From positions 1 through 64,000 of the IMG/VR virus record IMGVR_UViG_3300035208_005635: 64,000 nucleotides of DNA, one strand, 5' to 3'. Positions 4,424 through 57,225 of the stretch are shown here, one piece after another. The notes below the pieces were generated by a model. That model worked only from the letters and a program-made list of their open reading frames with translations, was not told where the DNA came from and did no database searches. The stretch comes from a virus (taxonomy: Duplodnaviria > Heunggongvirae > Uroviricota > Caudoviricetes). Made by a program: the position numbers and the translations under genes. Numbering within the stretch: the first letter of the stretch is position 1; each line of letters begins with the position of its first letter.

Positions 4424-4612
4424 TTGTCCATTAAGAAAGGATTGCGAATGATTATTCTTTCAGATGGAAAAGAAGAGTTCAACTTCTACGGGGAAACGTC
4501 TACTCTTGACTCCTGTTTACAACGAGGATTCAGAGTATGCCTTTATCACCAAAATCACGAAATGATTAGGACTTTAGACGGCTTATTCATCGTGAGGACT
4601 CAACCAAGTTAG
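4424..4612 (+). CDS. hypothetical protein
   Basis: 62 aa ORF with no recognisable motif. Confidence 0.3.
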   Translation: MSIKKGLRMIILSDGKEEFNFYGETSTLDSCLQRGFRVCLYHQNHEMIRTLDGLFIVRTQPS

Positions 4613-4689
4613 GAGAGTGGTCCATATCTATAAAGAAGGAGATGGTCTAAACACCTCCTTCTTGTCTCTTATTCTTTAAAACTTAAACT

Positions 4690-4842
4690 ATGGCAGAAGA
4701 AGCTAAAAAGCCTACTAGACAAGAATGTATAATTTATAGTCGTGTTGTCGGATGGTATACTCCAACGAAAAATTGGAATAAAGGAAAGAAAGAAGAATTC
4801 AAGGATAGACTATCTTTCAACATAAACGAAAAAACTTTATGA
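4690..4842 (+). CDS. small stand-alone glycyl-radical-domain-like protein (NrdD C-terminus / GrcA-like)
   Basis: 50 aa, MAEEAKKPTRQECIIYSRVVGWYTPTKNWNKGKKEEFKDR. The RVVGW(Y) segment fits the glycyl-radical fingerprint RVxG[YFW]. The following NWNKGKxEEFxDR resembles the C-terminal tail of anaerobic ribonucleotide reductase NrdD. Stop overlaps the amidase start (ATGA). Confidence 0.4.
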   Translation: MAEEAKKPTRQECIIYSRVVGWYTPTKNWNKGKKEEFKDRLSFNINEKTL

Positions 4843-5531
4843 ATATTATTAATAAATTATTTTCTATTGAGGAATTTAGAAAGTATGTAGAAGACAAAAA
4901 ATTCGGCCTTTTTAGTCCAAATAAAATTGTCTTGCATCATACGGCTGTTCCTGACTTAACTACTTGGCGTGGTCAAGAATCTATTTTGACTTTAAAAAAG
5001 TGTTATGAGAATAAAGGCTGGACTTCTGGTCCTCATTTATTTGTCGCCCCTGAAGGCATCTGGGTGTTTACTGACATAGATAAGCTAGGCACTCACGCAG
5101 GTTCGGGTAATACTAGAAGCATAGGAATAGAGACCGTGGGTAATTATGATAATGTTTTACCTACAGGCGAGGTTTGGAAAAACGCTAAGTTCGCCATTAT
5201 GATTCTAATGGCTAAGTTAAAGCTGACCCCCGAGAAGAATTTGTATTTCCATAGAGAATTTAGCAATACACATTGTCCCGGATTAAAAATAACTAAGCCT
5301 TGGGTTCTTCAGGAATTATCAAAAGTGGCTGTCATTTCCGATAAGTCTGTGATTAAGCCCGATACAAGCAACTCTATTTATTATTATAAAAATAATATTG
5401 CTTACCCAATACCTGATTGGGAAACATTTATGTTCTTTTGGAAGCCAGAAGACATAATTAAAATAACAGAAGATAATTTATCTAATTTAAAAGAAGGCAA
5501 AACATTGCCTTCCGTAAAAACATCTCTATGA
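4839..5531 (+). CDS. N-acetylmuramoyl-L-alanine amidase endolysin (Amidase_2 / PGRP, T7-lysozyme family)
   Basis: Motifs IVLHHTAVP ... GPHLFV ... THAGSGNTRSIGIET ... FHREFSNTHCPG are typical of zinc amidase_2. Confidence 0.8.
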   Translation: MNIINKLFSIEEFRKYVEDKKFGLFSPNKIVLHHTAVPDLTTWRGQESILTLKKCYENKGWTSGPHLFVAPEGIWVFTDIDKLGTHAGSGNTRSIGIETVGNYDNVLPTGEVWKNAKFAIMILMAKLKLTPEKNLYFHREFSNTHCPGLKITKPWVLQELSKVAVISDKSVIKPDTSNSIYYYKNNIAYPIPDWETFMFFWKPEDIIKITEDNLSNLKEGKTLPSVKTSL

Positions 5532-5731
5532 AATTACTAACAGCTCAAAATCAAGAGACTATCAAAGTCGCTGGCTTGTCCGCCTTTGCGACTGCCTTAG
5601 TATCTTTCGCGATTAATAAATTAATTGAGATAGAACTAAACTTCTGGTATCTACTAATATTATTAGTTTTGGGTATTAGTGTATTTGTCTATATCGATGT
5701 CAGAGGAGGAAAGCCAGATGGCGATGCTTAA
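5528..5731 (+). CDS. holin-like small membrane protein
   Basis: 67 aa with two predicted TM helices and a charged C-terminus. Start overlaps the amidase stop. Confidence 0.45.
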   Translation: MKLLTAQNQETIKVAGLSAFATALVSFAINKLIEIELNFWYLLILLVLGISVFVYIDVRGGKPDGDA

Positions 5732-12486: not shown

Positions 12487-14103
12487 TTATTGCATTTTTG
12501 GTTCGGGTATATCTTCTAGGCAAATTGTTGCCTCTACGGTTAAGAACATCTCTGCAATACTGCTGGCATTTTCTAGAGCACATCTAACAACTTTGGTTGG
12601 GTCGATAATACCCTCGTCTTTCATACTTACATAGCTTTCAGTTTCTGCATTATAGCCAAAGTCTTTATCATCACTATTTAAAATGTCGTTCATTATAACT
12701 TCTGATTTTAATCCGCCATTTTCGAGAATTTGCTTGAAAGGTTTTTCTACCGCATCAAAGACAATTTCTACACCTTTCTTTTCATTAGCGGTTAAAGTTG
12801 GGTCTTCTAAAAGTTTAGAATTTTGTCTTGCTCTTATTAAAGCAGTTCCTCCGCCAATAACAATTCCTTCCTCAAGAGCTGCTTGAGTTGCACTAATGGC
12901 GTCTTCTATTCTAAGTTCTAAATCACGCTGTTCAGTTTCACTATTAGCACCAACATTTATAATACCAACAACTCCTGAAAGTTTACCTAAACGGTCTCTT
13001 AGATTTTCTTTGTTGAAATCAGATTTTTCTTCGTCTAGGTCTTTTTGCAATTCTGCTATTCTCGATTCGATTAATTTTTTATCTCCCGCACCTTCTATAA
13101 TAGTAGTAAAGTCTTTTGTGGATTCTACTTTTCTTGCTCTTCCTAAATGAGATATTTCTATATTCTCTAGCTCTAGGCTTAAATCCTGAGTGATAACTGT
13201 TCCGCCAGTTAAAATTGCAACATCCTGCAAGAAAGACTTTTGCTTCTCTCCGTAGTAAGGAGCTTTGACAACTAGACTTCGATAGCTACCTTTAACATTA
13301 TTAACAATTAAAGAGGTAAGGGCATCTCCTTGCATATCACCGCAAAGAATAACAAGCTCTCTAGTCCCTGCGGTAGCTAACTTTTCTAAAATAGGAAGTA
13401 ATTTACCCATTTCAGAAATAGCTTTATCAGTGATTAAGATATAAGCTCCTTTTCCGTTATTATCAAATTCTCCTGTTTTCTTATCTCTGTCTGTAATCAT
13501 ATAAGGAGAAACAAATCCTTTGTCGAATCTGAAACCTTCAACCATTTCTACTTCTATGGTATTAGTGTTTCCTTTCTCAACATTTAAAATACCTGCCTTG
13601 CCTACTTTATTCATAGCTTCGGCAATTAACTTTCCTATATCGGCGTCTTTAGCTGAAATAGTGGCAACATTTTCCATTTGAGCAGTATCTTTTATCTCAA
13701 CAGAAATTTTCTTTAATTCGTCTACTAGACTTTTTACGCCTTTCTTAATACCTTTTTTAATACCGATGACACTCATACCTAATTCAGTATATTTCATTCC
13801 CTTAGAAATCATTTCTTGGGCTAGAACAACAGCAGTAGTTGTTCCGTCTCCTGCTTCATCATTTGTCTTAATAGAGGCGGATTTAATTAGTTTGGCACCC
13901 ATATTCTCAAATCTGTCTTTCAAGTCGATTGCTCTGGCAACAGTAACTCCGTCCTGATTAATGTCTGGTTCTCCCCATTCTTTTTCAATAACAACATTTC
14001 GACCCTTAGGACCGAGAGTGACTTTGACAATGTTGGCGAGGGTATCAACACCTCTCTTCATTGTTTCTCTTGAAAGTTTGTTTTGCTGAATTTGCTTTGG
14101 CAT
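12487..14103 (-). CDS. groL: chaperonin GroEL (Cpn60)
   Basis: 538 aa. [18 protein letters not shown]-binding signature and the characteristic equatorial/apical pattern. Ends ...PKMQ. Confidence 0.85.
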
Positions 14104-14557: not shown

Positions 14558-15490
14558 TTAATATCCTTGAATGCCTCCTGCGGTATCAACCGGTATAGGA
14601 CCATACATATTATTAGGAACATAGGAACCATCCCATCTCTCAACTCTTTCTTTTTCAATTTCTAATTGAATTTTCTTTAATTCTATATCCCAATTTTTAG
14701 CAACCTCTTCATTATATTTTCTAATACCTTCACCGTCTAAGGCTTTGGCTTCAGCGTTTAGTTTAGCGGCTTCTTTTTCTCCTTCAGCCTTAGTAATTAA
14801 AGATTGCTTTTCGGCTTCAGCCTGCTTAACTAATTTTTGAGCTTCTTGTTCTGTAATTAATAGTTCTTGTTCTTTCCGCTTAACTTCTTGAGCTCTTTTC
14901 ATTGTTTCTTCAATTTGAGCTTCAAAAGCGTCAGACCAATTATAATTAGTTACTTTGACTTCTGTTATTTGAAGAGGATAATTACCAGTCGATAAATCGT
15001 TTCTAAACTTTTCAGCTATTTCAGACCTAATTTTTTCTTGGTTATCGGCAATATCATATATAGTATACTCACCTATCGTTTTCTTAGCACTTTCTTTTAA
15101 TGTTTGTAATACAATAGATTTTATTTTATCTTCGCCGGTATTTCTCCACATCTCTACTAGCCTGCTCTCATCATATTTATAAAATACTGATAATCCAACA
15201 CCGATAGTCTGATTATCTTTTGAAATTGCACCATCTTCGCCTACTTCAATAGTATAATCTACTTGAATAGGTCTAATAGTTATTTCTTTGATTTTCTGAA
15301 ATAGAGGGACTCTCCAATTCACACCTTCACCTTTTACTTCATCACTTAAAGCTCCCATTGTGAATACTAAACCTCTATTGCCTGAATCTACTATCTGAAA
15401 AGGCTTAAAAGTTAGAAATAGGATAATGGCTAAAAAAATAATAATAGCCCCTACGCCAATTTTAGCCTCTTTTGAGTAACCATCTAACAT
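14558..15490 (-). CDS. SPFH/band-7 (prohibitin/HflC-like) membrane protein
   Basis: N-terminal TM helix followed by an SPFH core (FQIVDSGNRGLVFTMGAL ... VNWRVPLFQKI ...) and a long Ala/Glu/Lys coiled coil. Confidence 0.65.
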   Translation of the reverse strand: MLDGYSKEAKIGVGAIIIFLAIILFLTFKPFQIVDSGNRGLVFTMGALSDEVKGEGVNWRVPLFQKIKEITIRPIQVDYTIEVGEDGAISKDNQTIGVGLSVFYKYDESRLVEMWRNTGEDKIKSIVLQTLKESAKKTIGEYTIYDIADNQEKIRSEIAEKFRNDLSTGNYPLQITEVKVTNYNWSDAFEAQIEETMKRAQEVKRKEQELLITEQEAQKLVKQAEAEKQSLITKAEGEKEAAKLNAEAKALDGEGIRKYNEEVAKNWDIELKKIQLEIEKERVERWDGSYVPNNMYGPIPVDTAGGIQGY

Positions 15491-16815: not shown

Positions 16816-16818
16816 AGG

Positions 16819-16889
16819 TGCTTGGGGTTAGAATCGAACTAACTTCCGGCGAGTTTCAGTCGCCTGCTTTTCCATTAAGCTACCCAAGC
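16819..16889 (-). tRNA. tRNA-Phe (anticodon GAA)
   Basis: Hand-folded cloverleaf. Acceptor gcttggg/cccaagc. D-arm gctt..aagc. Anticodon stem ggcga/tcgcc with loop ctGAAac. T-arm gttag-ttcgatt-ctaac. Discriminator A. Confidence 0.85.
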
Positions 16890-17236
16890 TCTTTTAGAAA
16901 CGCTCTACCGTTGAGCTATTTCTCACCACCGAAGCTGGAGAATTATCGGAGTCTAACCGATGTCTTTTCTAATACGTCAGAGATAGTGGAATTGAACCAC
17001 TTTTTTACGGTTCCAAACCGTATATAATACCGTTATATCAATCCCTGGTAACGGTGTTCTTCCGTATCACCGCCTAAAAGAATAGATAGAAATTGTAATA
17101 TTAAAAGTATAATTAAAAATTTTTTCATATCCTCCTTGCTTATGTGGGAAGAGTGAGAGTCGCACTCCGCGGGGATTGAAACAATCACTTGGTCTACAGC
17201 CAAGTCTCGCCCTCTACGAGTCTACCTGCCCTTTTT

Positions 17237-22742: not shown

Positions 22743-25700
22743 TTAAACTCCTTGGGGTATATTCATTGGAGGCTTTGCTATTTTCGGGTCTTGAGCAGGG
22801 TCTTCTTCAGTATCTTTTGATTCTGTAGGTCCATAAAGAGATTCTTCAAACTTACAAGTATCTTCATTAACTATGAAAAATCTTTCTCCGCTTTTTCCGT
22901 GTCTATTTTTATCTATGTTTATTCTAGCCCATTTCTCTAGTTCGCGATTTGCCATTCTCTTTCTCCAGAGTAAAGCAACTATATCAGCATCTTGTTTTAT
23001 TGCTGAACTGTCTTTCAAGTCTTCCATAGTCGGCTTGTCATTATCGTTTCCTAATTTTTTAATATGACAAATTAAAACTACAGGAACCATTAGCTTTCTA
23101 GCAAGCAATTTGCAATATCTAACTATATCAGAAATTTCTATTGTTCTATTTCTACTGTCTCCCGAGGCAAAGAAATGCAAGTGGTCGATAAATATAATTC
23201 TGCAACCAAAGTCTTTAACTGCTTTTTCTGAAACAGAACCTAATAATTGCGTATTTATTTTTTCGTAGCCCGAATATAAATAAATAGGTTTGCTAGCGAT
23301 ACCTTTATAAACTTCTTCTAGCTTAGAAAATTCTCCTTTGGCGTCTTTTTTAATTAACTCTGATTGGCGAACGTTTCCTTGAAGCATCATAAATCTCTCA
23401 GCTATTTCTTCAGGAGTCTGTTCTAAACTAAAATACATTACTGGTATAGGGTCTGGATTATTTTTTTCGTCTTTGTGGTTGACAATATTCATAACCATAT
23501 TTTGCGTAAAGAAAGTGTTATGATTAATAATAAAATTTTCGAGAATATACAATTGGTCTTTATCAAGAGAAAATCCATAGTAGTCTCCGACAGGCCACTC
23601 CCAAATTCTAAATCTAGTAGTCAACCAATTTATGTCTGTGACTTCTTTTTTTACTATTTTTCTTTTTACCTTTAAAGGTATTCTTTTTACGTCTCCTGAA
23701 ATATAAACTCTATAACTTTGAAAGTTTCTTCCCAAGCAAGTGGTTGTTCTTTCTTTTAGAGTAGAGGCAAAGAACCCCAAAGACCGAGCCAAGAAAATAA
23801 CGTCTTCACAAAGCTGTTTATTCTTATTAGAAAAAGAGTATCCTACTTTTTCTTTATTACCGTCACTGTCTATTAAGCCTGCTAATAATTCTAGTCTATT
23901 TTTCTCAGAGTTTATCTTATAATTTTGTGGTATATGCTTATTCTCTATGAGATTTTCTTTCTTTAAGAGGCTTAACAAAGATAGGGCAGAACCGTATCCC
24001 TTCTTGCCTGTTTTATATATGTATTTTCCTTTGTGTGTTTTGTTCACACCTTCAAATTTCTTTTCTCTCGTTAAACAATAATACTTTGATTTATTGTTTG
24101 GTTGGTTTTTTGTAACCAGTTGAAGATTTAATCTATTTGCGTAATCTCTTAAATATTTTTCTATCTCAAAATCAGCAGAGGTAACACAAGGTCCTGAGCT
24201 TGTTCCATCACCTAACCATAACCCCAGAAAGTAAGGTTCAAGAGATACTTTTTTCTCTTTAAACTTTATTGATTTTGGGTGTTCAAGATAATAAACGTGT
24301 TTTCTCTTACTCGCAAGTTTTATCCAGTTATCTATTGTGATATCGATTGTATCTGGGTAGTGCGGATACTTTTTAGTATTTTTCTTAAGGTGTAGCAAAT
24401 GATTTCTGTTAACCACAAAATTCTCTGCACCTTTTTTAGGTTCAACTTTCCACATTTTTTCTCTGCCTCTTGCTAATTTTAAAACCGTCCTCGGAGTGCT
24501 GTCAGGACCCATTAACTTGTCTCCAATTTTTATGTCCTCTACTTTTTTTAAAGTTCCGTTATACATTAACACCTTTGTTCCCTTAGCGTGGCACTTTCCA
24601 ACGCCAGTGTCTCCAGAAATAACAATTAGATTTCCGTCTCGCATTCCACGCCATACATCGTCTAATAATTTCCAACCGGTAGACATTCCTCTGAGGACAT
24701 TTGGATTCTTCATTTCTTCCATTGCGGTTTTAGCAACTTCTTTTATTTTTTTTATATGCTCGCTTTCAACGGTTATTTTTTTAGCGGAGTTGTATAAATT
24801 ATTAAAATCGTCTACTGTTTTTTTCTTAACCGCAAAAAAGTCATTTAAGTCTTTTTGTCCAGGCTCTTTTGGTATTTCTATTATTCGACATCTGCTGGCT
24901 CCTAATTTTTCTATAGCGAGTAAATTTCCTTTTTGACCTGCCTCATCGTTGTCATAACAGTTATGAGAAATTACTTTTTGTTCTGTAATATAGCTATGGT
25001 CGTCTTTTACATCTATATTATAAGTTTCTTCATCTATTACCTGTTTAATAGATATTTTTCTTACTCTATTTAAAAGATAAAAATTTTCCCAGAATTTTTT
25101 CATCTGAACTTGACATTTTTTACTAGGAGATATCTCAGCAAGACTAACTGTATATCTTTTTTTCCAAGTTTTTTCTTTATACGACCAATCGTGTGTTGTA
25201 AATCCGTAACCACACTGTAGAGCAAGAATTTCAAAGAATTTAATAATAGACTCGTTTGTATTACTAAATTTAATGTATTTATATTTTTTATCTATTGTTC
25301 CGTCTGAATCTATTAGACCTTGCAATATCTCTTTCTTATTAAGGGAGCTACGAAATATATCATAAGAAACACTTTTCATTCTAGGCATCATTTTAGATGA
25401 GTCTCCTGCAACCTCTTGATAAAAATTCTTAAACCCATATAATCTAGAATCATACGAATATAAACATCCTATATTTCCTTTCTCTACTGTCGAATATTTT
25501 ATTTTATATTTGTCAAAGAATTTTTTTACTCTTTCCAAAATATGCTTTTTTGTTTTTGTGTTATATGCCAATTCAAATCTATACTTTCTTGAGTAATGTC
25601 CGTCTCCTAAAAACAAACCCAAAAGATAAGAGAAGTCTTTATCTTGAATCATCTTCGTGTTAGCAATATCTATAAATTCTTCCCCAAACTCAGAACCTTC

Positions 25701-28010
25701 TTTTAATCTCCCCCTTTCGTCTCTTTCTGAAATCTTTTGAGTTATTCTTCTTTCAAAAAAGCTAAAGGATACTCCTAACTCCGAACCAAATTTAGGAAAA
25801 AGTAAATAGTCTCCTTCTCGAATTTCTCCCGCTTTTTTCCAAATAGGCTCTTTCAGAAATTCTCTTCTATTTTTTATATACTTAATATTTTCTTTTTCAT
25901 AAACAAGAATAGGATGATTACTTGTAACCCAATTCTCAGTATTTTTAGTTTGACCGACAATAGAAAACTTTCTCATTTCTCCTGAATACACATTCTTCAT
26001 TACTTTATAAACCTCTTTTAAATTTCCTATGTGAGTCCAAACACTATCAGAGACCTTAATATCCTCAATATTTTTTAATCCTTGACGAGTATAAATCTTT
26101 GTTCCTTTCTCATAGCATAAATAAATACTATTCACTTTCTGCATAGCATCTGCCCACTCTTGTTTGAATGTCTGAGCTCCACAGGTTACGCTTACAACAT
26201 TCTCCCAACCTTCCTGATAAAGGCTCATTGCGTCTATTTCTCCTTCGGTAATAACTAATTTATTCGCTCCTTTGATTACATCTCCGTTAAACAAAACCAT
26301 TTTTCCTCCGTGGACATTCATCATTTTAGGAGCTTCTGGGTCGAGGGGATTTCCTCGGTATCTAATATTTACCACTTTGCTGTTTTCAAATATTGGAATA
26401 GAAATGCTGGTTCCCGTCCAACCTATTTTAAAATGCTCTAATGTTTCAGGTAATAGCTTTCTAGTAACTGTTAAATATTCATAAATTTGACCCGTTACTG
26501 AGTTCTTGTCGTCTTTCTTCTCAAGTAGAGTCTTGTGATACTCTTCAATCGAGGTCTGGTATCTCTTCATTTCTACCTCGCTAGGACCTTTATTCTCCTT
26601 CTCCTGAGGTTTTTCTAGCTCTTGCGGGGATTTTACTGTCTCAGATAAATTACGCGAATTAGAGCCATTAGAGGGCTCAATTTCAGGTTTTGTATAATCA
26701 TTATAAAATTTCGCTAATGTTATTATATTTCCAGATTTACCGCAATTATGAACAGCACAACCTGAGACATTATAAGTATGACTATCTTCTACGGTTAAGT
26801 CATAAACATCTACATTTTTAACTTCTGTAGTAACTATTTTCTTTAAAAATTTTATTCCTTTTACAGAATTTTCTGAACAATCCCAACGAATAGTCCAACA
26901 TTTTTTATGGTGAACTCCTTTTTTATCTATTTTTTCTTCCTCTGAATTTATAGAAGCAGTTCTTCCTAATCCCCACAAGGCAAAATATATCTGAATAGCT
27001 AATTTCTTTGATACTGTTTTGCTAGAATTTTGTTTTTTAAACCCGTCTCCTGCAAAATACCCTTCTAAGATGTTTGGTAAAATATTAGAAGATAGAAGAC
27101 AGTTGGGTATATGTTTATTTTCTGCCCCCCTCCCGCAATTCTTTTCAAACCATCTTTCTAAGTAAACTCCAAAAACTTGAAGACTCTCTCCATTAGGACT
27201 AATAGAGGATTGAAGAGAGTTGAATCCATATTTCGTAAATAGTTTTTTTACTCTGTCTATGTTCTTCTGCTCTTTTTTATGAAAGGCAAAAGTAATACAT
27301 CTAGAAGATTTAGCTCCGTCTGCAATATATAATCCTACGCACCACCAAAATTCTCCGTCATTAAACATTTCTTCTGTAATAACTTTCGGCACAGGTCCTT
27401 TGGCTGATAAAATATAACTAGAAGCATCGCCACAATAATTAGGATAAAATCTGCTTACTTCATAAATATCTCGCCTATCAATTATGGGCATCTCCAAACC
27501 ATATAAAGGTTTTATTTTATCTGCCTCCAGCCAAATAGATTGTTTTGCTAAAGATTTAAAATTTCTTTTTTGATTCTTTAACTTTTTACTTCTAGGATTA
27601 CAGGAAAAAACAGATAAGAGATGGTTGGGAGTGCAAGTTATGTCTAGTAAATCTATAGAAGAATTACAAGACAAAGTAGTAAGCTTTCCTGTATATTTTC
27701 TCGAGATAGTATTGAGAACCTCTTTGTATCTTCCTTCTTTTGTTAAGACAAAATCGCCCTTTTTTATGTCTCTAATTTCTTTTATTCCGTTGCTTGTTCT
27801 TACCAAAGAATTTCCTGTGAAACATTTATGACAAAAATATAAACCTTTAGTGCTAATATAAAAATGGGTCCAATCTTCTTTATTTTCTCTGCAAAAAGGG
27901 CATTTATTAGTAATAATCTGGTCGCCTTCTGCTCTAGTTTTTAGTCCTTTGCTTTGAAGATAGTTAGTTATCTCTGAGGCAGTGGGATTAATGAAGTTTA
28001 AAGGAGTCAT
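22743..28010 (-). CDS. DNA primase-helicase (CHC2 zinc finger + Toprim + DnaB/gp4-like helicase) interrupted by three inteins
   Basis: The extein totals about 650 aa. It has a CPFC..H..C zinc finger, a Toprim domain (VITEGEIDAMS ... YDNDEAGQ), a P-loop ISGDTGVGK|T and a later helicase region (IFIDHLHF, LICHIKK). Three Hint insertions begin at CFTGNSLV, CYEKGTKI and CHAKGTKV; each ends in HN followed by C, C or T. Confidence 0.8.
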   Translation of the reverse strand: MTPLNFINPTASEITNYLQSKGLKTRAEGDQIITNKCPFCRENKEDWTHFYISTKGLYFCHKCFTGNSLVRTSNGIKEIRDIKKGDFVLTKEGRYKEVLNTISRKYTGKLTTLSCNSSIDLLDITCTPNHLLSVFSCNPRSKKLKNQKRNFKSLAKQSIWLEADKIKPLYGLEMPIIDRRDIYEVSRFYPNYCGDASSYILSAKGPVPKVITEEMFNDGEFWWCVGLYIADGAKSSRCITFAFHKKEQKNIDRVKKLFTKYGFNSLQSSISPNGESLQVFGVYLERWFEKNCGRGAENKHIPNCLLSSNILPNILEGYFAGDGFKKQNSSKTVSKKLAIQIYFALWGLGRTASINSEEEKIDKKGVHHKKCWTIRWDCSENSVKGIKFLKKIVTTEVKNVDVYDLTVEDSHTYNVSGCAVHNCGKSGNIITLAKFYNDYTKPEIEPSNGSNSRNLSETVKSPQELEKPQEKENKGPSEVEMKRYQTSIEEYHKTLLEKKDDKNSVTGQIYEYLTVTRKLLPETLEHFKIGWTGTSISIPIFENSKVVNIRYRGNPLDPEAPKMMNVHGGKMVLFNGDVIKGANKLVITEGEIDAMSLYQEGWENVVSVTCGAQTFKQEWADAMQKVNSIYLCYEKGTKIYTRQGLKNIEDIKVSDSVWTHIGNLKEVYKVMKNVYSGEMRKFSIVGQTKNTENWVTSNHPILVYEKENIKYIKNRREFLKEPIWKKAGEIREGDYLLFPKFGSELGVSFSFFERRITQKISERDERGRLKEGSEFGEEFIDIANTKMIQDKDFSYLLGLFLGDGHYSRKYRFELAYNTKTKKHILERVKKFFDKYKIKYSTVEKGNIGCLYSYDSRLYGFKNFYQEVAGDSSKMMPRMKSVSYDIFRSSLNKKEILQGLIDSDGTIDKKYKYIKFSNTNESIIKFFEILALQCGYGFTTHDWSYKEKTWKKRYTVSLAEISPSKKCQVQMKKFWENFYLLNRVRKISIKQVIDEETYNIDVKDDHSYITEQKVISHNCYDNDEAGQKGNLLAIEKLGASRCRIIEIPKEPGQKDLNDFFAVKKKTVDDFNNLYNSAKKITVESEHIKKIKEVAKTAMEEMKNPNVLRGMSTGWKLLDDVWRGMRDGNLIVISGDTGVGKCHAKGTKVLMYNGTLKKVEDIKIGDKLMGPDSTPRTVLKLARGREKMWKVEPKKGAENFVVNRNHLLHLKKNTKKYPHYPDTIDITIDNWIKLASKRKHVYYLEHPKSIKFKEKKVSLEPYFLGLWLGDGTSSGPCVTSADFEIEKYLRDYANRLNLQLVTKNQPNNKSKYYCLTREKKFEGVNKTHKGKYIYKTGKKGYGSALSLLSLLKKENLIENKHIPQNYKINSEKNRLELLAGLIDSDGNKEKVGYSFSNKNKQLCEDVIFLARSLGFFASTLKERTTTCLGRNFQSYRVYISGDVKRIPLKVKRKIVKKEVTDINWLTTRFRIWEWPVGDYYGFSLDKDQLYILENFIINHNTFFTQNMVMNIVNHKDEKNNPDPIPVMYFSLEQTPEEIAERFMMLQGNVRQSELIKKDAKGEFSKLEEVYKGIASKPIYLYSGYEKINTQLLGSVSEKAVKDFGCRIIFIDHLHFFASGDSRNRTIEISDIVRYCKLLARKLMVPVVLICHIKKLGNDNDKPTMEDLKDSSAIKQDADIVALLWRKRMANRELEKWARINIDKNRHGKSGERFFIVNEDTCKFEESLYGPTESKDTEEDPAQDPKIAKPPMNIPQGV
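23517..24593 (-). mobile_element. intein 3 (359 aa, LAGLIDADG) inside the helicase Walker A motif
   Basis: The extein reads GDTGVGK-[intein]-TFFTQ. Begins at CHAKGTKV. Contains YFLGLWLGDG and LAGLIDSDG. Ends IINHN with a +1 Thr. Confidence 0.75.
24960..26117 (-). mobile_element. intein 2 (386 aa, LAGLIDADG) within the Toprim domain
   Basis: Begins at CYEKGTKIYT. Contains LLGLFLGDGH and LQGLIDSDGT. Ends ISHN with a +1 Cys (CYDNDEAGQ). Confidence 0.75.
26745..27824 (-). mobile_element. intein 1 (360 aa, LAGLIDADG homing endonuclease) within the primase zinc-finger region
   Basis: Begins at CFTGNSLV. Contains LYIADGAKS and GYFAGDGFK. Ends VHN with a +1 Cys. Confidence 0.75.
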
Positions 28011-29026: not shown

Positions 29027-29113
29027 CCAAATACTGTATTTTATGCAAGTGGGAGTAATCTAATTTTTAGACAATTTAAGTATAGCATATTTTAGGAATT
29101 TAATCAAATATTG

Positions 29114-29184
29114 AGGGAGGCCTAGGAATCGAACCTAGATAGCTTGCACCACAAGCAAGTGCTCTACCATTGAACTAACCACCC
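29114..29184 (-). tRNA. tRNA-His (anticodon GTG)
   Basis: Acceptor gggtggt/gcctccc with one U-U mismatch. D-arm gttc..gagc. Anticodon stem cttgc/gcaag with loop ttGTGgt. T-arm ctagg-ttcgatt-cctag. No encoded G-1. Confidence 0.75.
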
Positions 29185-32250: not shown

Positions 32251-33987
32251 TTACCCCTTCATATTATAATATTTTCCAACTTTACTGTCAGATAAAGATT
32301 CATAATATGTAGAAAGGTTTTTTAATTGTTCGTGTTCCATTCCAATAACAAACGAATGAAGTATTATTTTTTTCTTTTCTAAAAATTCTTTTGTCAAACT
32401 TACATTATCTCCTCCGTCTGTGATGACAAGAATGTCCGCTCTGTCATATAAATCACTCTTGTCGCTAGGGTCTTGCTTAAATAATTTAGGGTTGTTAATG
32501 TCGTTTATTGCTTGGTGAATTGCTCCGTCTATGCTTGTTCCTCCCCCAGAATGACGATATTCCATTAGGAATTTAACTTCTTTTTTTGCTTCTTCCTCGT
32601 TGGTTACTTTTTTTAAATCGTGAGGTTGGTCGTCAAAGAATCTATAAAAATAGATACTTTTTTCTGTTAAGGCTTTTTTGACATAGGCTAAGGCTATACC
32701 ACAGGCTACTGTTTGATTTCTTCCGTCCATCGAGCCTGAGCAGTCAATCAATAAATAAATAATCTGCTTTTTCTTTCTGCGACTTTCAAACTGTTTCATT
32801 TTCAAGTCCTTGTCAAAAAGCATTTTGTCAAATAGCTCGTCTGGGTATCCAAACTGGTAAGGGAGAATATTCGGCAAGTCGTTTACCGACCTAATGTTTT
32901 GTATCTTCCAGTCTTTTTCAGGATAGTCTACGGGCGAACGCTGTTCTTCTCGGCAGTATTGTTCTGTTGCCCCTATTTTTCTAGCAATGTCTAAAATTCT
33001 ATAAGTTTCATCATCAACTTTTTGAGCTATCTTTTCGATATTTTTAGCCAGCCCTTCGATAGTCTTTAAAGAATTATGACCTGTTCCTGCTTGTCGTTCT
33101 ATTATTCCTCGAAACAATTCATCATCAAAAATATTATTCTCTAGAGCTTTTTCTATATCGGGTATTTTCTGATTAAATTTATCCATATCAATAGGCAAGT
33201 CCGGCGGGTTATCACTCATCTCTGTTTCTGGGGAGGTATCCATTTCTTCTTCTCCTTCTCCTTGAGGTTTGTTGTTATCTCCTTGACCTTGAGAAGAATC
33301 GCTTTTGCTATTTTTTCCTTGACTGCCACCTCCTTTTTGTTGACCTTGGGATTGAGAATTTTCTTCTTGCTCTTGTTTATCTTGTCCTTTGCTTTCTTGA
33401 TTTTGTTCCTCTGAATTTTCTTGTTCTTCTTCTCCCCCTTTACCTTTTCCTTTACCTTTTCCCTCACCTTCTCCTTCTCCTTCGCCCTCACCTTCGCCTT
33501 CTTTTTGCTCTTTGTCATCTTGACCTTGTTGACCTTCTCCTTTCTCTGATTGCTCTTGCTGTTCTTGTTTTTCACCCTGTTGACCTTTTCCTTTCTGTTT
33601 CTTCGGGTCAGGAGGTTTAGGACTAAACATATCAAGAATTATTCTGAGAGCTTCTTCAGGGTTATTTATGCCCTGTAATTGTTGAAATAATCTAGTGTGG
33701 CCGAACTCTCTGAGAAATTTTCTTACGGCATCATAATGATAATAGACTTTATAGTAATCTCTTAATCTTTTTTTAATATATCCATCAGCGACTTCGTCAT
33801 CTATCTCCATAGGTGTTTTTAGGATTTTGCTAGGATTAAGAGTTTCAAATAAAGCGAATAAATCTTTTGAGAAGTCCAAAGAAACTTTTTCTTTTGTTTC
33901 GGGGTTTATAGCTTCGACTTTTTCATCGGTTATTACTTCAACGGTTTCTGCTTGAGGCAAGGTTAATTGTTTATTAGTTACTCTCAT
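32251..33987 (-). CDS. von Willebrand factor A (vWA) domain protein with long low-complexity E/Q/G/K linker
   Basis: C-terminal MIDAS motif YLLIDCSGSMDG. Central region rich in GEGEGEGE/KGKGKGKG/QEQQEQ. Confidence 0.6.
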   Translation of the reverse strand: MRVTNKQLTLPQAETVEVITDEKVEAINPETKEKVSLDFSKDLFALFETLNPSKILKTPMEIDDEVADGYIKKRLRDYYKVYYHYDAVRKFLREFGHTRLFQQLQGINNPEEALRIILDMFSPKPPDPKKQKGKGQQGEKQEQQEQSEKGEGQQGQDDKEQKEGEGEGEGEGEGEGKGKGKGKGGEEEQENSEEQNQESKGQDKQEQEENSQSQGQQKGGGSQGKNSKSDSSQGQGDNNKPQGEGEEEMDTSPETEMSDNPPDLPIDMDKFNQKIPDIEKALENNIFDDELFRGIIERQAGTGHNSLKTIEGLAKNIEKIAQKVDDETYRILDIARKIGATEQYCREEQRSPVDYPEKDWKIQNIRSVNDLPNILPYQFGYPDELFDKMLFDKDLKMKQFESRRKKKQIIYLLIDCSGSMDGRNQTVACGIALAYVKKALTEKSIYFYRFFDDQPHDLKKVTNEEEAKKEVKFLMEYRHSGGGTSIDGAIHQAINDINNPKLFKQDPSDKSDLYDRADILVITDGGDNVSLTKEFLEKKKIILHSFVIGMEHEQLKNLSTYYESLSDSKVGKYYNMKG

Positions 33988-34009
33988 ATTTATAAACGAA
34001 ATTTAAGAA

Positions 34010-35236
34010 TTATTTGTCGACTTCATACATTAACTTTTGCTTGGTTTCGTCAATGGTTGTTTTTAATTTTTCCATAAAATCTTTTTTCCTCTTTTCAACA
34101 TTGTCATTAACTGTTGTTAATTGCCCTAATTTCTTTTGAGCCGAAGCCAAAGCTTTCAATCTTTCTATGAACTCGCTAGCTTGAAGAGTGACGTTTTTAA
34201 ATTCGTCTATCTTTAACTCTGCTTCTACTTTTGCGATTTCAGCTAATTGATTCTTTTCATCTTCAAGACCCTCTACACATCTCTTATAGACTTTATTAAA
34301 AGTCTCTTCATCATCTTCGTCATTCATCGTGCAAAGACCATATCTAACTTCAAATAAATCTGTAAATACTGCTTGCTTTCTTCCGTCTAATATGACAGCC
34401 GCTTTTACAATATCTAAAAGCTTATTAGAAGTTCTGGAAGAAATATACTTTTTGCGTTTAACATTTATTTCTTTGTCATATTCTGTAATCAACTCGTCAT
34501 AAACTTCTAAAACCTCATCAGAAATTATTACCTCATCAGAGTAAACTTTGTCTGTGAAGTCTTTCAACTGTTTCAAATCCAAAATAGGCTTAATCGGATA
34601 AGATGCTAATTTACCGCCTGCTTTGGCAAGATGCTGTGAATACATTTTAAGTTTATTGCTCTTGCTTTTTAGAGGTTTGACAATAGACTTAAATAAAAAT
34701 CTATCCAAAATAGGAATAGTTTTTTCATTTATAGATTGATAATTAGCAGTCGCTACCGCTGTGTGCAACATAGCGTCTTCCTGCTGTCTGCCTTCTATAA
34801 ATTTTCTTTCATTTAAAATGCCTAATAAAGTTCTTAAGACATCTTCTCTGCCGTCAAAGATTTCATCTATAAAAGCGAAGTCCGCTTCTAAGATTGAGCC
34901 TGTGATATCTCTCATTAGAAATCCTTTATCTTTCCAAGTAGGAATATCATAAGCACCAAATAAATGTTCTGATAAAGTAGCTTCAGACATTTGAATAGAA
35001 AATAATTTAGCATTTTGAACTAAATTAAAAGCGTGTTTAGCAAGCATCGATTTTCCTGTTCCTGCATCTCCCTGAAGAAAAACGTGCTCACCGATAAGCA
35101 TCGCATACATTAACTGCTTCAACTCCTTGTCTCTTTCTAAAAGAAACAAATTCTTAGAACTAAATCCTTTTTCCAAATCTTGTGTTCGGCTAGGTTTAGT
35201 CTGAGTTTGATTTTGATTTTCCATTTTTTTGGTCAT
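34010..35236 (-). CDS. MoxR-like AAA+ ATPase
   Basis: Walker A GDAGTGKSML. Walker B FAFIDEIF. Long helical C-terminal domain. Adjacent to the vWA protein. Lies downstream of conserved promoter P4. Confidence 0.65.
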   Translation of the reverse strand: MTKKMENQNQTQTKPSRTQDLEKGFSSKNLFLLERDKELKQLMYAMLIGEHVFLQGDAGTGKSMLAKHAFNLVQNAKLFSIQMSEATLSEHLFGAYDIPTWKDKGFLMRDITGSILEADFAFIDEIFDGREDVLRTLLGILNERKFIEGRQQEDAMLHTAVATANYQSINEKTIPILDRFLFKSIVKPLKSKSNKLKMYSQHLAKAGGKLASYPIKPILDLKQLKDFTDKVYSDEVIISDEVLEVYDELITEYDKEINVKRKKYISSRTSNKLLDIVKAAVILDGRKQAVFTDLFEVRYGLCTMNDEDDEETFNKVYKRCVEGLEDEKNQLAEIAKVEAELKIDEFKNVTLQASEFIERLKALASAQKKLGQLTTVNDNVEKRKKDFMEKLKTTIDETKQKLMYEVDK

Positions 35237-48278: not shown

Positions 48279-48349
48279 GGTTTAGTAGCCAAGTGGAAAG
48301 GCAGGGGTCTGCAAAACCCCGAACATAGGTTCGATTCCTGTCTAGGCCT
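48279..48349 (+). tRNA. tRNA-Cys (anticodon GCA)
   Basis: Acceptor ggtttag/ctaggcc with two G-U pairs. Anticodon stem ggggt/acccc with loop ctGCAaa. T-arm atagg-ttcgatt-cctgt. Confidence 0.75.
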
Positions 48350-48359
48350 CAAAATATTT

Positions 48360-48791
48360 ATGAACCACAAATTTAAAAAAGCTAGAAAAGTAACGGAAAA
48401 AGAAAAAATATATTGCGGAGGAAAACCAGAAGCAATTATTCCAGAAAAACCCAAAGTTTCTGCAGGGATAAAAAAATATGAATGTAAAAGAGGAAAAGGA
48501 AAGCATATTTTTGAAATTGTTCCTAAAAATCAGAAAAAGCATAAATACGATAGTTGGATAGAATATAAATGTAAGTTTTGCGGTAAAGAAGAATACCGAA
48601 TAATATCAATGGGTTATAAAAAAACTTCTAATGGATATTATACAAAAAAAGAACCTAAAAAATGTCCTATTTGTGGAAAGGAAGTCATACCTGATTTAGA
48701 AAGTTTAGATAAAAAAGGATTGTGGGATGAGCATACTTTTAAATATAACTGTAATTGTCATAATAAAGATTTAAGAGTTTCGATAGGTTAG
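48360..48791 (+). CDS. hypothetical Cys-rich zinc-ribbon protein
   Basis: CKFCGKEEY ... CPICGKE ... CNCHNK. Confidence 0.4.
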   Translation: MNHKFKKARKVTEKEKIYCGGKPEAIIPEKPKVSAGIKKYECKRGKGKHIFEIVPKNQKKHKYDSWIEYKCKFCGKEEYRIISMGYKKTSNGYYTKKEPKKCPICGKEVIPDLESLDKKGLWDEHTFKYNCNCHNKDLRVSIG

Positions 48792-48865
48792 CCAATATAG
48801 CTCAACTGGCTAGAGCAATTCTCTTGTAAAGAAAAGGTTAGAGGTTCGAACCCTCTTATTGGCTC
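48792..48865 (+). tRNA. tRNA-Thr (anticodon TGT)
   Basis: Acceptor gccaata/tattggc. D-arm gctc..gagc. Anticodon loop ctTGTaa. T-arm agagg-ttcgaac-cctct. Confidence 0.8.
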
Positions 48866-48872
48866 TAAAAAG

Positions 48873-48943
48873 TAGGGATAGTTCAGTGGCAGAATACTCG
48901 CCTCCAAAGCGAAAGACAAGAGTTCGATTCTCTAGCCCTATGC
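48873..48943 (+). tRNA. tRNA-Trp (anticodon CCA)
   Basis: Acceptor gtaggga/gccctat. D-arm gttc..gaat. Anticodon stem ctcgc/gcgaa with loop ctCCAaa. T-arm aagag-ttcgatt-ctcta. Confidence 0.7.
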
Positions 48944-48971
48944 AAATTAATTTAATAATGAAATAAAAAAA

Positions 48972-49271
48972 ATGATAATTAATAAAAAGTATTTCACAAA
49001 AAGAGAATTAAAAAATTCTGAAGAGGCAATTATTCTAGCGAGAAAAATAATGGCTGGCGAGTCTGAGAATAGCACCTTAAAATATGACGCCTTAAGAAAG
49101 AAAATAAGAGAAATGGACTTAGATAAAGAGAGCAATCATTATATTTATTTAGTTGGTGAAAGAGTGTCTGATTTAATCATAGCTACGCATTGTCCTATTA
49201 ATGGAAATTTCGCTTTCAGGAAATGCACACAAGAAGAGTGGTTAGATTATTATCATAAATATGTAATGTAA
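48972..49271 (+). CDS. hypothetical protein
   Basis: 99 aa ORF. Confidence 0.4.
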   Translation: MIINKKYFTKRELKNSEEAIILARKIMAGESENSTLKYDALRKKIREMDLDKESNHYIYLVGERVSDLIIATHCPINGNFAFRKCTQEEWLDYYHKYVM

Positions 49272-49272
49272 T

Positions 49273-49344
49273 CGCGGGGTAGAGAAATTGGCATCTCGTC
49301 GGTCTCATAATCCGAAGGAGCGGGTTCGAATCCCGCCTCCGCAA
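49273..49344 (+). tRNA. initiator tRNA-fMet (anticodon CAT)
   Basis: CGCGGGGTAGAG...GTCGGTCTCATAATCCGAAGG...GGGTTCGAATCCCGCCTCCGCAA. C1xA72 mismatch. Near-identical in layout to the bacterial initiator tRNA. Confidence 0.9.
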
Positions 49345-49591
49345 CAAGGTATTTGCTTTTTGCAAATAGCACTTTGTCCGTTTCTTATTTGTTATCGTAA
49401 GAACAAATAAGTTAAGGAAGACAATTAATTCGTGGCAACCGAAGGGGATAATCAGGGCTTAAAAGCCTAGTAGCCCGTTGATTGAGGATTACGAGCCAAA
49501 TATATCAACGTATGACTAATAAATAATCTTTTTATTAGTTGCGAGACCTCTGCTGGAATAGGCTATGCCGCCGAAGTGCTATTCGCTAAAA

Positions 49592-49664
49592 GCGAATGTA
49601 ATATAACGGTTTAGTATGACAGTTTTCCAAACTGTTCGCGTGGGTTCGACTCCCACTATTCGCA
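49592..49664 (+). tRNA. tRNA-Gly (anticodon TCC)
   Basis: Acceptor gcgaatg/tattcgc. Anticodon stem acagt/actgt with loop ttTCCaa. T-arm gtggg-ttcgact-cccac. Confidence 0.8.
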
Positions 49665-49669
49665 CAAGA

Positions 49670-49753
49670 GCTACTGTGGTGGAATTGGCAGACACGCAAC
49701 ACTTAAAATGTTGTGGGGGAAACCCCATAGAGGTTCAACTCCTCTCAGTAGCA
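49670..49753 (+). tRNA. tRNA-Leu (anticodon TAA), type II with long variable arm
   Basis: Acceptor gctactg/cagtagc. Anticodon stem caaca/tgttg with loop ctTAAaa. Variable arm gggggaaacccca. T-arm agagg-ttcaact-cctct. Confidence 0.85.
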
Positions 49754-49758
49754 CAGAA

Positions 49759-49839
49759 GCTCCTGTAGAGAAACTGGTAAACTCGCCTGCCTTAGAAGCA
49801 GGAGCGAAAGCAGTCTGGGTTCGAATCCCAGCAGGAGCA
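49759..49839 (+). tRNA. tRNA-Leu (anticodon TAG), type II
   Basis: Acceptor gctcctg/caggagc. Anticodon stem cctgc/gcagg with loop ctTAGaa. T-arm ctggg-ttcgaat-cccag. Confidence 0.85.
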
Positions 49840-49844
49840 CGTAT

Positions 49845-49915
49845 TGGCTTGTAGCTCAACGGTAGAGCACTGAACTGATACTTCATAGACCTTGGTTCGA
49901 CTCCAAGTAAGCCTA
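49845..49915 (+). tRNA. tRNA-Ile (anticodon GAT)
   Basis: TA-GCTCAACGGTAGAGC D-arm. Anticodon loop ctGATac. T-arm cttgg-ttcgact-ccaag. The exact acceptor boundaries are uncertain (U1-U72 mismatch in my fold). Confidence 0.6.
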
Positions 49916-49971
49916 CTGAGATTAATATATAAAAATAAAGTGACTGACTGTTTCCTCTTGACAAGGAGGAA

Positions 49972-51754: not shown

Positions 51755-52486
51755 ATGCTAAAAGTTCACGAAGTCTTTAAGTCATTCCAGGGGGAGGGCG
51801 TGGACATTGGAATGCCGATGGTTTTTGTTAGGTTTGTTGGTTGTAATCTTGCTTGCAAATGGTGTGATACTTTATACGCTAGTCGTCCTAATTCTGAATA
51901 TAGAGAATATTTTGCTTTGCCTTTAATAGAAGAGATAGAGAAATTTGAAAATACTAGAGGAGTTACTTTAACAGGCGGGGAGCCGATGGTTCAGGATACC
52001 TTAGAACTAGACACGCTAATTTATGAATTAAAGGGAAAAGGACATTTTATAAATATAGAAACTAATGGAATTTTTCTTCCTGTTTTAACTAACGATAAGT
52101 TAGTAGATAGATTTAGTATTTCTCCTAAATTAAGCTCTTCAAAAAATAAAAATAGTCCTAATTTAGATACTTTATCTAAATACTTAAACGATTATCCTCA
52201 TAAGATATTCTTTAAATTTGTTATAAGTAATGAAGAAGAGCTTTTAGAGATGTTTGCTGTTTTGGAAAGCTTAAAACAAAAAGATATTAATATTTTGAAT
52301 ATACCTATAGTAGTTCAGCCTAACATAGACCCAAAAAAGGCAGAAAATTTTGTTGCTCAACAAGATGCTTTTAAAGACATATTAAAAGAAATATTATTTA
52401 AACACGCTTACTTATCTAGACAATATAATATTCGAGTTATTCCTCAATTCCATAAATATCTATGGGCAAACAAAAAAGGAGTTTAA
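51755..52486 (+). CDS. queE: 7-carboxy-7-deazaguanine synthase QueE (radical SAM)
   Basis: N-terminus LKVHEVFKSFQGEG (QueE signature). CNLACKWCDT radical-SAM CxxxCxxC. 243 aa. Confidence 0.8.
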   Translation: MLKVHEVFKSFQGEGVDIGMPMVFVRFVGCNLACKWCDTLYASRPNSEYREYFALPLIEEIEKFENTRGVTLTGGEPMVQDTLELDTLIYELKGKGHFINIETNGIFLPVLTNDKLVDRFSISPKLSSSKNKNSPNLDTLSKYLNDYPHKIFFKFVISNEEELLEMFAVLESLKQKDINILNIPIVVQPNIDPKKAENFVAQQDAFKDILKEILFKHAYLSRQYNIRVIPQFHKYLWANKKGV

Positions 52487-56896: not shown

Positions 56897-57225
56897 CATC
56901 AATAATTGTAAAATCTAATTTTGTTGGTTTTCATTGTTGGCTTCGAGCACCAGATGAAGTTTCTTTTCTCAGAGAATATCACAGACATATTTTTTATGTA
57001 GAGTTAAAGATAGAGGTAAAGTCTTCAGATAGAGAATTAGAGTTTTTTACTGTTCAGAATAAATTAAAGGAAAGGATTGACACTGATTACAGAAATCAGT
57101 ATTTTCACAAGAGCTGTGAAATGATTGCTGAAGAATTGCGAAATAACTTTTTAGGTCTTTACCCGTCAAGAAATATCTCAGTTTTAGTTTCAGAGGATGG
57201 TGAGAACAGTGCCTTATGTGAATAA
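56893..57225 (+). CDS. hypothetical 110-aa protein in the deazaguanine island
   Basis: The size fits T-fold enzymes. No confident motif. Confidence 0.3.
   Translation: MTSIIVKSNFVGFHCWLRAPDEVSFLREYHRHIFYVELKIEVKSSDRELEFFTVQNKLKERIDTDYRNQYFHKSCEMIAEELRNNFLGLYPSRNISVLVSEDGENSALCE

Follow-up and report, generated by a model that had tools for sequence, protein, structure and literature searches.

Why would a bacteriophage keep a gene for the radical-bearing loop of an anaerobic ribonucleotide reductase and for nothing else of that enzyme? The question is raised by a 50-residue protein encoded at positions 4690-4842 of a 64,000-nucleotide stretch of DNA, hereafter the window, which comprises positions 1 to 64,000 of the IMG/VR virus record IMGVR_UViG_3300035208_005635 (Caudoviricetes). 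A preliminary description, made from the sequence alone, had recognised in this protein the glycyl-radical loop of NrdD, the class III ribonucleotide reductase (RNR), and had suggested that it might be a spare part for the host enzyme, analogous to the GrcA protein that rescues oxygen-cleaved pyruvate formate-lyase (PFL). Sequence comparison now identifies the protein, with high confidence, as a homologue of the separately encoded radical subunit of a two-piece NrdD. On balance, it appears probable that the gene is a host-derived orphan and that its product is the dissociable, radical-bearing subunit of a split class III RNR, which the phage would supply to the enzyme of its host. Two features are central to what follows:

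4690..4842, + strand: stand-alone NrdD glycyl-radical peptide gene (open reading frame; match to the NRDD C-terminus; homologues; dN/dS)
4750..4752, + strand: GGA codon of the predicted radical residue, Gly21, in YSRVVG-W (invariance; structure alignment)

Identity of the 50-residue protein

The open reading frame (ORF) runs from an ATG start to a TGA stop on the plus strand and encodes MAEEAKKPTRQECIIYSRVVGWYTPTKNWNKGKKEEFKDRLSFNINEKTL, so that both the peptide and the coordinates given in the preliminary description are correct. The protein passes the gathering score of the Pfam family NRDD (PF13597; E 7e-8, 32 bits against 26.2), with residues 11-43 aligned to profile positions 531-562 of 562, that is, to the extreme C-terminus only. 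The NrdD model TIGR02487 is likewise matched at positions 548-580 of 581 (E 1e-7); the score of 31 bits lies far below the cut-off of 326, as the match is confined to the last 33 positions, and NCBIfam NrdD models in general are matched over their final 33-36 positions. In contrast, Gly_radical (PF01228), the family of PFL and GrcA, gave no match even at E <= 10.

Structural alignment leads to the same region of the enzyme. A search of the PDB with the single sequence returned only a chance match, to cucumber basic protein (E 0.5), and was thus uninformative, so that a profile search was required. In Thermotoga maritima NrdD (4COI; 'YMRIVGYLVPV..', with an RIVGY loop) the family profile aligns to residues 611-645, and in Prevotella copri NrdD (8P23; 'RITGYL..WNSGK', with an RITGY loop) to residues 712-738, a region in which the P. 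copri enzyme has a buried loop with the radical glycine plus a C-terminal tail (PMC11226230). Gly21 aligns with the radical glycine of these solved NrdDs and is, therefore, the predicted radical site. In an alignment of 40 mixed sequences (alignment A1), Y16, S17, R18, V19, V20, G21, P25, N30, G32, K33, E36 and R40 are invariant, and Y16, R18, G21, P25, N30, K33, E36 and R40 are without variation among 56 unique viral sequences. The claim of a stand-alone NrdD glycyl-radical loop in this ORF is, therefore, borne out by the Pfam and TIGR02487 matches and by the alignment to both structures.

The rest of the enzyme is missing from the protein. The ten-stranded alpha/beta barrel with the catalytic cysteine on its finger loop is absent, which makes this a subunit of fragment size and not an NrdD enzyme. 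The zinc ribbon (CxxC/H ... CxxC) that precedes the glycine loop is also absent, C13 being the sole cysteine of the 50 residues.

A naturally split NrdD in cells

A homology search returned 126 proteins, mostly of 40-86 aa, several of which belong to sequenced bacteria (Halothermothrix, Halanaerobium, Iocasia, Aminobacterium, Jonquetella and Dethiosulfovibrio). The small ORF of H. orenii and of Jonquetella anthropi stands third in an operon, after nrdD (676 or 683 aa, with ATP-cone and NRDD) and the activase gene nrdG. The large protein ends in '...TITPTFSICPIHGYLPGEHEYCPKCDAEIGYKVEKTG' and a stop ('...CPIHGY..CPKCD..'), directly after the zinc ribbon and without the glycine loop, and the small ORF (51 or 47 aa) begins with 'MEKKRQKCEVYSRVVGFLTPVSQWNKGKKEEFKDR' ('M..KCEVYSRVVGF..'). 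Fused NrdDs of other organisms carry both parts in a single chain, '...CPxHGY..CPxCGxxxEVYSRVVGYYRPVxNWNKGKxEEFKxR'. When the end of the body and the start of the small ORF are set against this chain, the break is seen to lie exactly at the junction of the zinc ribbon with the radical loop. The split body (~685 aa) comprises the ATP-cone, the catalytic barrel and the zinc ribbon and ends right after CPxC, and the small subunit is a 45-65-aa ORF with the YSRVVG loop and the C-terminal WN-GK-E-R tail. The phage ORF has this small-subunit shape, as it starts a few residues before YSRVVG and ends after WN.GK..E...R.

A scan of cellular genomes, with one genome per species, yielded at least 597 confirmed stretches, and the best 80 loci were classified; the cellular counts given here refer to those 80. 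NrdD is split in 43 loci and fused at full length in 30, and the remaining seven have a small ORF without a body in the locus, two of them at contig edges. The small gene adjoins the body or nrdG in all 43 split loci, and nrdG is adjacent in 40. The order body-small-nrdG (30 split loci) is typical of Patescibacteria, and the order body-nrdG-small (10 split loci) of Halanaerobiales and Synergistota; the split lineages include these three, Victivallales and others.

A gene interrupted by an intron, or read through from one piece into the next, was also considered for the cellular loci and was excluded. Gaps between body and small gene range from 15 to 184 nt in the body-small-nrdG type, in varying frames that are not consistently in frame; no group I or group II intron was found in 10 split loci at Rfam gathering thresholds; and nrdG lies between the two pieces in 10 loci. 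Together, these features indicate two polypeptides and not a read-through, frameshifted or spliced gene.

The family is large. A profile search of 1.84 billion cluster representatives gave 5,166 matches at E <= 1e-3, the best 150 of which are all 42-192 aa long. In GenBank and other databases these small proteins are named 'anaerobic ribonucleoside-triphosphate reductase' or 'hypothetical protein'.

Among the best 80 loci, the cellular proteins nearest to the window protein are 55-69% identical to it and share its RQEC-I-YSRVVGW signature, with Trp after the glycine. They are small subunits of split operons, mostly in metagenome-assembled genomes (MAGs) labelled Patescibacteria (Falkowbacteria, Parcubacteria). 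A further weak hint of the host comes from the Band_7 protein of the window, which shares 50% identity with an ORF of a Patescibacteria locus.

Several cellular loci have features of their own. On the Lentisphaeria chromosome CP091727 (L078, 5726-6305), three tandem small glycyl-radical ORFs lie between the nrdD body and nrdG; the body itself is divided among three ORFs in the long-read assembly, possibly through assembly error. In Halanaerobium saccharolyticum (L044, 2569-2774), a cobalamin riboswitch (103 bits) stands directly upstream of the split nrdD operon, suggesting that the class III enzyme is repressed in a B12-dependent manner. Interrupted hidden Markov model (HMM) matches mark the NrdD bodies of L026, L061, L065, L074 and L158, which are 1000-1147 aa long and probably contain inteins. 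Orphan small ORFs are also present in bacterial MAG contigs, at L054 5980-6126 (Falkowbacteria, 334-kb contig) and L069 5935-6117; neither has NrdD or NrdG within 6 kb or a match to the fetched viral loci, and the neighbours bear no PHROG annotation.

Orphan copies across phages

A scan of IMG/VR gave 466 viral stretches with a relative of the small protein. The best 80 loci, to which the locus counts below refer, fall into the following classes:

76/80 viral loci: small ORF alone (41-182 aa), with neither NrdD body nor NrdG in the flanking 10 kb as far as the contig extends
1/80 viral loci (L158): complete split operon
1/80 viral loci (L148): fused NrdD, complete
1/80 viral loci (L114): fused NrdD, cut by the contig end
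1/80 viral loci (L119): without a small-ORF match on re-scan

The phages that carry orphans are mutually unrelated, and only L095 among these loci is syntenic with the window. The neighbours of the orphan vary accordingly and include Amidase_2, M23, lysozyme, GH108, small or large terminase, AAA_24/DUF669 and replication genes, with no neighbour conserved across the orphan-bearing phages. Such variable lysin, terminase and replication neighbours fit insertion of the small gene at module boundaries. PHROGs holds no dedicated family for the protein, and 30 of the 56 viral orphans weakly match the NrdD large-subunit family phrog_487.

Subtypes of the viral proteins copy those of host lineages: 'RQECIVYSRVVGWLTPVKNYNPGK' corresponds to Patescibacteria, 'KKQKCEVYSRVVGYLSPVSEWNKGK' to Halanaerobiales, 'RTRCEVYSRVVGFLTPVSQWNKGK' to Synergistota and 'MAKCGxKTEVYSRVCGYFRPVSNWNKGK' to Victivallales/PVC (Planctomycetes-Verrucomicrobia-Chlamydiae). 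Among 60 unique viral cores, 40 are nearest a split small subunit, with up to 94% identity; 10 are slightly closer to a fused NrdD, and 10 are ties. Orphans also occur inside large contigs of the split-NrdD lineages. L052, which lies inside a Synergistaceae contig of 396 kb, has 100% identity over 12 kb with the viral loci L126 and L127, and L086, within a 5.7-Mb Victivallales contig, is ~80% identical to the viral loci L115, L151 and L165; both elements are, therefore, probably prophages.

Longer stand-alone forms of 99-144 aa exist as well, in L001 (2686-3120, the archaeal virus ANMV-1, 144 aa), L110 (910-1266), L124 (5769-6068) and the proteins P0227 and P0254. These correspond to a whole glycyl-radical domain, with a CxxC...CxxC zinc ribbon and the loop, and have no NrdD body nearby. 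In P0235 (192 aa) the radical peptide is fused to a domain resembling deoxycytidine monophosphate deaminase, and in L142 (9983-10492) and L155 (8198-8707) it is followed by ~120 aa that start with a lipoprotein-like signal (..LVSGC..). These fusions could be real, or could reflect missed stop codons.

Genomic setting and the search for a catalytic partner

The window is clearly phage DNA (tail fibre, lysis genes, RuvC, HNH, ParB, GroEL, DnaB-primase and PolA; ~33% G+C), with a terminase-like ATPase at 61812-63512, and an identical small protein is recorded on a 98,792-bp contig. The small gene lies between tail-fibre and endolysin genes, as an orphan without an nrdD/nrdG operon, and the 5.3 kb upstream of the window, as seen in locus L008, hold tape-measure, Dit and tail-fibre genes. 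Its immediate surroundings are:

4448..4612, + strand: conserved 54-aa ORF upstream of the hairpin (third-codon-position substitution pattern against L169, L170 and L171)
4633..4663, + strand: terminator-like hairpin with a 9-bp stem, AAGAAGGAG/CTCCTTCTT, then a T-rich tract, 26 nt before the start codon
4839..5531, + strand: Amidase_2 endolysin gene (PF01510 on the identical gene in L008; ATGA overlap)
5528..5731, + strand: 67-aa hydrophobic protein, probable holin (two hydrophobic stretches; also after the amidase in L095 and L169)

The overlap with the endolysin start that had been described is real, with the amidase ATG at 4839-4841 and the TGA of the small gene at 4840-4842. The same slot and the same 4-nt overlap recur in L169, L170 and L171 (84% and 80% protein identity), and in L095, a more distant relative, the small gene overlaps the amidase start by 16 nt. 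The 67-residue ORF is the probable holin that completes the lysis cassette downstream.

Upstream, the hairpin has a folding energy of -14.2 kcal/mol (z -2.9), and its stem is preserved via compensatory changes in the relative L169. It was absent from a simple terminator scan because its loop exceeds 8 nt. The small gene thus comes first in the lysis cassette, just past a terminator-like boundary. The stretch from hairpin to ATG is a mere 26 nt, all of them fully conserved, without a clear promoter for the lysis cassette. No riboswitch or known RNA was found upstream of the phage gene at E <= 1. The 54-aa ORF before the hairpin was missed by the gene caller in L008.

The small phage gene is under purifying selection. 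Its ratio of nonsynonymous to synonymous substitution rates (dN/dS, Nei-Gojobori) is 0.056 between the window and L169 and 0.23 between the window and L171. In the comparison with L169 the small gene has a dS of ~2.2 and a dN of 0.12, against 0.57 and 0.03 for the adjacent amidase gene, and this greater divergence hints at recombinational exchange of the small gene.

No NrdD body was found in the 64-kb window besides this ORF, either by tblastn with two full-length phage NrdDs or with an HMM built from four bodies, in agreement with the preliminary description, and no NrdG was accepted. There is no full-length nrdD directly upstream in another frame, and no residue of NrdD-like sequence upstream in any frame. 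The single radical S-adenosylmethionine (SAM) candidate for NrdG, the ORF at 51755-52486, matched the seed HMM at 1e-7 and was rejected as QueE-like (TIGR03365 2e-31 against NrdG2 3.5e-11), standing beside FolE. In a close relative whose terminase is 95% identical, neither NrdD nor NrdG occurs within 10 kb on each side of the terminase.

Other features of the window

The QueE-like ORF belongs to a gene cluster resembling a DNA hypermodification pathway (51755-52486, 55106-56896, 56893-57225, 57238-58590 and 58647-59666). Besides the QueE-like radical-SAM protein, the cluster holds a GTP cyclohydrolase I-phosphoribosyltransferase fusion interrupted by an HNH-bearing intein, a 110-aa ORF that is possibly QueD, a PhpK-like radical-SAM protein and a glycosyltransferase. 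The position of the QueE-like gene beside GTP cyclohydrolase I (FolE) suggests a 7-deazaguanine DNA-modification cluster.

Elsewhere on the minus strand, positions 22743-28010 encode a 1755-aa protein with primase (Toprim) and DnaB helicase parts and several Hint/intein segments with homing endonuclease domains (LAGLIDADG and Hom_end), and a full-length GroEL, the Band_7 protein and a MoxR-AAA plus VWA pair are encoded at 12487-14103, 14558-15490 and 32251-35236, respectively. The window also contains 11 tRNA genes (16817-17047, 29113-29184 and 48279-49916), and a single block at 48.3-49.9 kb accounts for eight of these.

Proposed function and alternatives

We postulate that the phage peptide, produced during infection, would be charged by the host activase NrdG, which would abstract a hydrogen from Gly21 and leave a glycyl radical on the peptide. 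The loop would then enter the barrel of the host NrdD opposite the catalytic cysteine, with the tail packing on the surface of the body. By taking the place of host peptide that is in short supply, has been turned over or has been cleaved by O2, the phage copy would raise or maintain the active fraction of the reductase, and the supply of deoxyribonucleoside triphosphates (dNTPs) for phage DNA synthesis would be sustained. For a separate peptide O2 damage would be cheap, with only ~45 residues lost, and the peptide may be regarded as a consumable worth supplying by a phage. Such a scheme is plausible on two grounds. Short RVSGYAV-type peptides were reportedly found by Frey et al., in 1994, to be substrates of the PFL activase. 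GrcA (YfiD) and phage T4 Y06I, in turn, are autonomous glycyl-radical proteins: each undergoes activation as a small free protein and can reconstitute PFL (Wagner et al. 2001, as cited in PMC13450708). The wider proposal is about as likely as not, namely that a two-component class III RNR with a freely exchangeable ~45-aa radical peptide operates in many anaerobes, much of the Patescibacteria among them, and that hundreds of unrelated phages and prophages carry the peptide gene alone as a portable, host-charged cofactor.

The alternative nearest to this proposal is a spare part in the manner of GrcA, in which the host has a full-length NrdD and the peptide replaces only the C-terminal fragment lost to O2 cleavage. 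GrcA and T4 Y06I are precedents for it with PFL, the 10 viral cores marginally nearer to fused NrdDs are in its favour, and ANMV-1, L110 and L124 carry the entire zinc-ribbon-plus-loop domain. For the window protein, however, this is unlikely: its closest cellular relatives are all subunits of split enzymes, it lacks the zinc ribbon and starts where split small subunits start, viral subtypes track the split-NrdD lineages, and the old loop stub of a cleaved fused enzyme would still fill the barrel entrance. What stands of the original suggestion is an autonomous radical module serving the host NrdD, which is still the best reading, and what does not is membership of the GrcA family, since PF01228 is absent. 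The cellular relatives are a regular subunit of a split NrdD and not primarily an emergency part, although repair may contribute. It is also conceivable that the peptide is a decoy or inhibitor that competes for the host NrdG or the NrdD barrel and so throttles or re-times ribonucleotide reduction. A late-gene position coupled to lysis genes and the lack of a visible phage RNR in the window that would need the peptide would suit such a role. Yet the phage has ~99 kb of DNA per genome to make, and the window shows no other source of dNTPs; in a decoy, substitution of the glycine by a residue that cannot be activated would be tolerated or even favoured, whereas Gly21, Y16 and R18 are invariant in 56 viral sequences; and the identity between viral sequences and working host subunits reaches 94%. 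We consider a decoy quite improbable.

Two further explanations look to an NrdD of the phage itself. The peptide would be the subunit of a phage-encoded split enzyme if the body and the activase lay elsewhere in the genome, and indeed ~35 kb of the 98.8-kb contig fall outside the window and one viral contig, L158, has a full split operon. This is very hard to reconcile with the cellular pattern, in which the small gene adjoins the body or nrdG in every split locus, as the phage gene instead stands among tail-fibre and lysis genes. Tail genes also fill the 5.3 kb upstream of the window, the close relative is without NrdD and NrdG in the 10 kb on each side of its terminase, and the remaining stretch, from terminase to tape measure, would by synteny hold virion genes. 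Alternatively, the ORF might be a non-functional relic, the last exon or a fragment of a decayed or intron-broken phage nrdD, given that phage nrdD is often fragmented by introns and homing endonucleases (PMC12880540). That hardly seems credible for a gene with its own ATG, a dN/dS of 0.06-0.23 and a slot conserved in relatives; no residual NrdD-like sequence lies upstream, and the same stand-alone architecture recurs in nearly all the classified viral loci and in thousands of protein clusters.

The proposal of an orphan radical subunit charged and used by a split host enzyme has difficulties of its own, which we gather here. Coupling to lysis genes and a late position are odd for nucleotide metabolism and unexplained by the model. 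AlphaFold2 prediction of the peptide alone (alignment A1) gave a predicted local distance difference test score of 63, mostly coil and no confident fold. About 20 kb of the 98.8-kb contig, between terminase and tape measure, lie outside our coverage, although by synteny they would be head and tail genes. The 10 of 60 viral cores that are nearer to fused NrdDs imply that not all orphans need act on split enzymes. The phage is probably one of Patescibacteria that acquired the gene from its host lineage, with the host inferred only from sequence relationships, and GroEL gives a weak host signal, as the top named match of the GroEL encoded in the window is to Patescibacteria at 52%, against ~50% for Bacillota (a relative phage has a GroEL 92% identical). 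Finally, activation by the host NrdG, docking on the host body and benefit to the phage are all inferred, for every member of the family alike.

Relation to known systems

The phage peptide resembles the Escherichia coli protein GrcA/YfiD and the T4 protein Y06I in being a small stand-alone protein that carries just the radical loop of a large glycyl-radical enzyme, and charging by an activase and action in trans are presumed for it by analogy, Y06I being the phage-encoded example. There are also differences. GrcA is derived from PFL and belongs to Gly_radical, whereas the phage peptide matches only NRDD; GrcA has ~127 aa with a folded domain, whereas the peptide has 50, loop plus tail; and GrcA repairs an enzyme that has its own loop, whereas the cellular partners of the split small ORF lack the loop altogether. 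With full-length NrdDs, such as those of T4, T. maritima and P. copri, the peptide shares the R-V/I-x-G-Y/W/F loop and the P..WN.GK..E...R tail, but it is an independent gene, without the barrel, the preceding zinc ribbon or an adjacent NrdG. The likeness extends furthest with the small ORFs of cellular split nrdD operons, in length, start point, invariant residues and the RQEC..YSRVVGW signature (55-69% identity), with the difference that the cellular gene stands beside a loop-less body and nrdG, whereas the phage gene is an orphan.

Comparable arrangements are found outside glycyl-radical enzymes. The split class II RNR NrdJa/NrdJb of Pseudomonas aeruginosa also places a C-terminal functional module on a separate polypeptide (PMC9669993). 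Its class and chemistry are different, however, and NrdJb bears a zinc finger and a redox tail, not a radical. We know of no description of phage orphan copies in the NrdJa/NrdJb case. Cyanophage psbA (D1), by analogy, is another case in which a phage carries only the damage-prone, high-turnover part of a multi-part host enzyme, although protein and process are unrelated. The expression and function of psbA during infection have been demonstrated, whereas the phage radical peptide is known here from its sequence.

A June 2026 review names formate lyases as the sole glycyl-radical enzyme class with small spare-part proteins, and GrcA for PFL as the only exception to the rule that glycyl-radical enzymes bear the radical on their own C-terminal domain (PMC13450708). 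In the open-access literature searched, neither a split class III RNR nor an autonomous radical protein of the NrdD type was found described, although a description may exist elsewhere. The phage peptide would thus extend the idea of an autonomous glycyl-radical cofactor to a different enzyme family, and to a form that is widespread in phages.

Significance

If the proposed function is true, this would be the first viral auxiliary gene to supply a protein radical to an RNR; formate lyases apart, it would also be the first spare-part system of a glycyl-radical enzyme. A two-piece NrdD would offer a clean system in which to study the exit of the radical domain from the barrel towards its activase, and the repair of that domain after O2 damage. 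There would also be consequences for annotation, as thousands of 40-90-aa proteins now called 'anaerobic ribonucleoside-triphosphate reductase' or 'hypothetical' would be real subunits, and loop-less NrdD genes would be functional, not truncated. For phage biology, a tiny and widespread auxiliary metabolic gene would be gained, with which phages of anaerobes, including those of the ultra-small bacteria of the candidate phyla radiation, could control host dNTP synthesis for an outlay of 150 bp.

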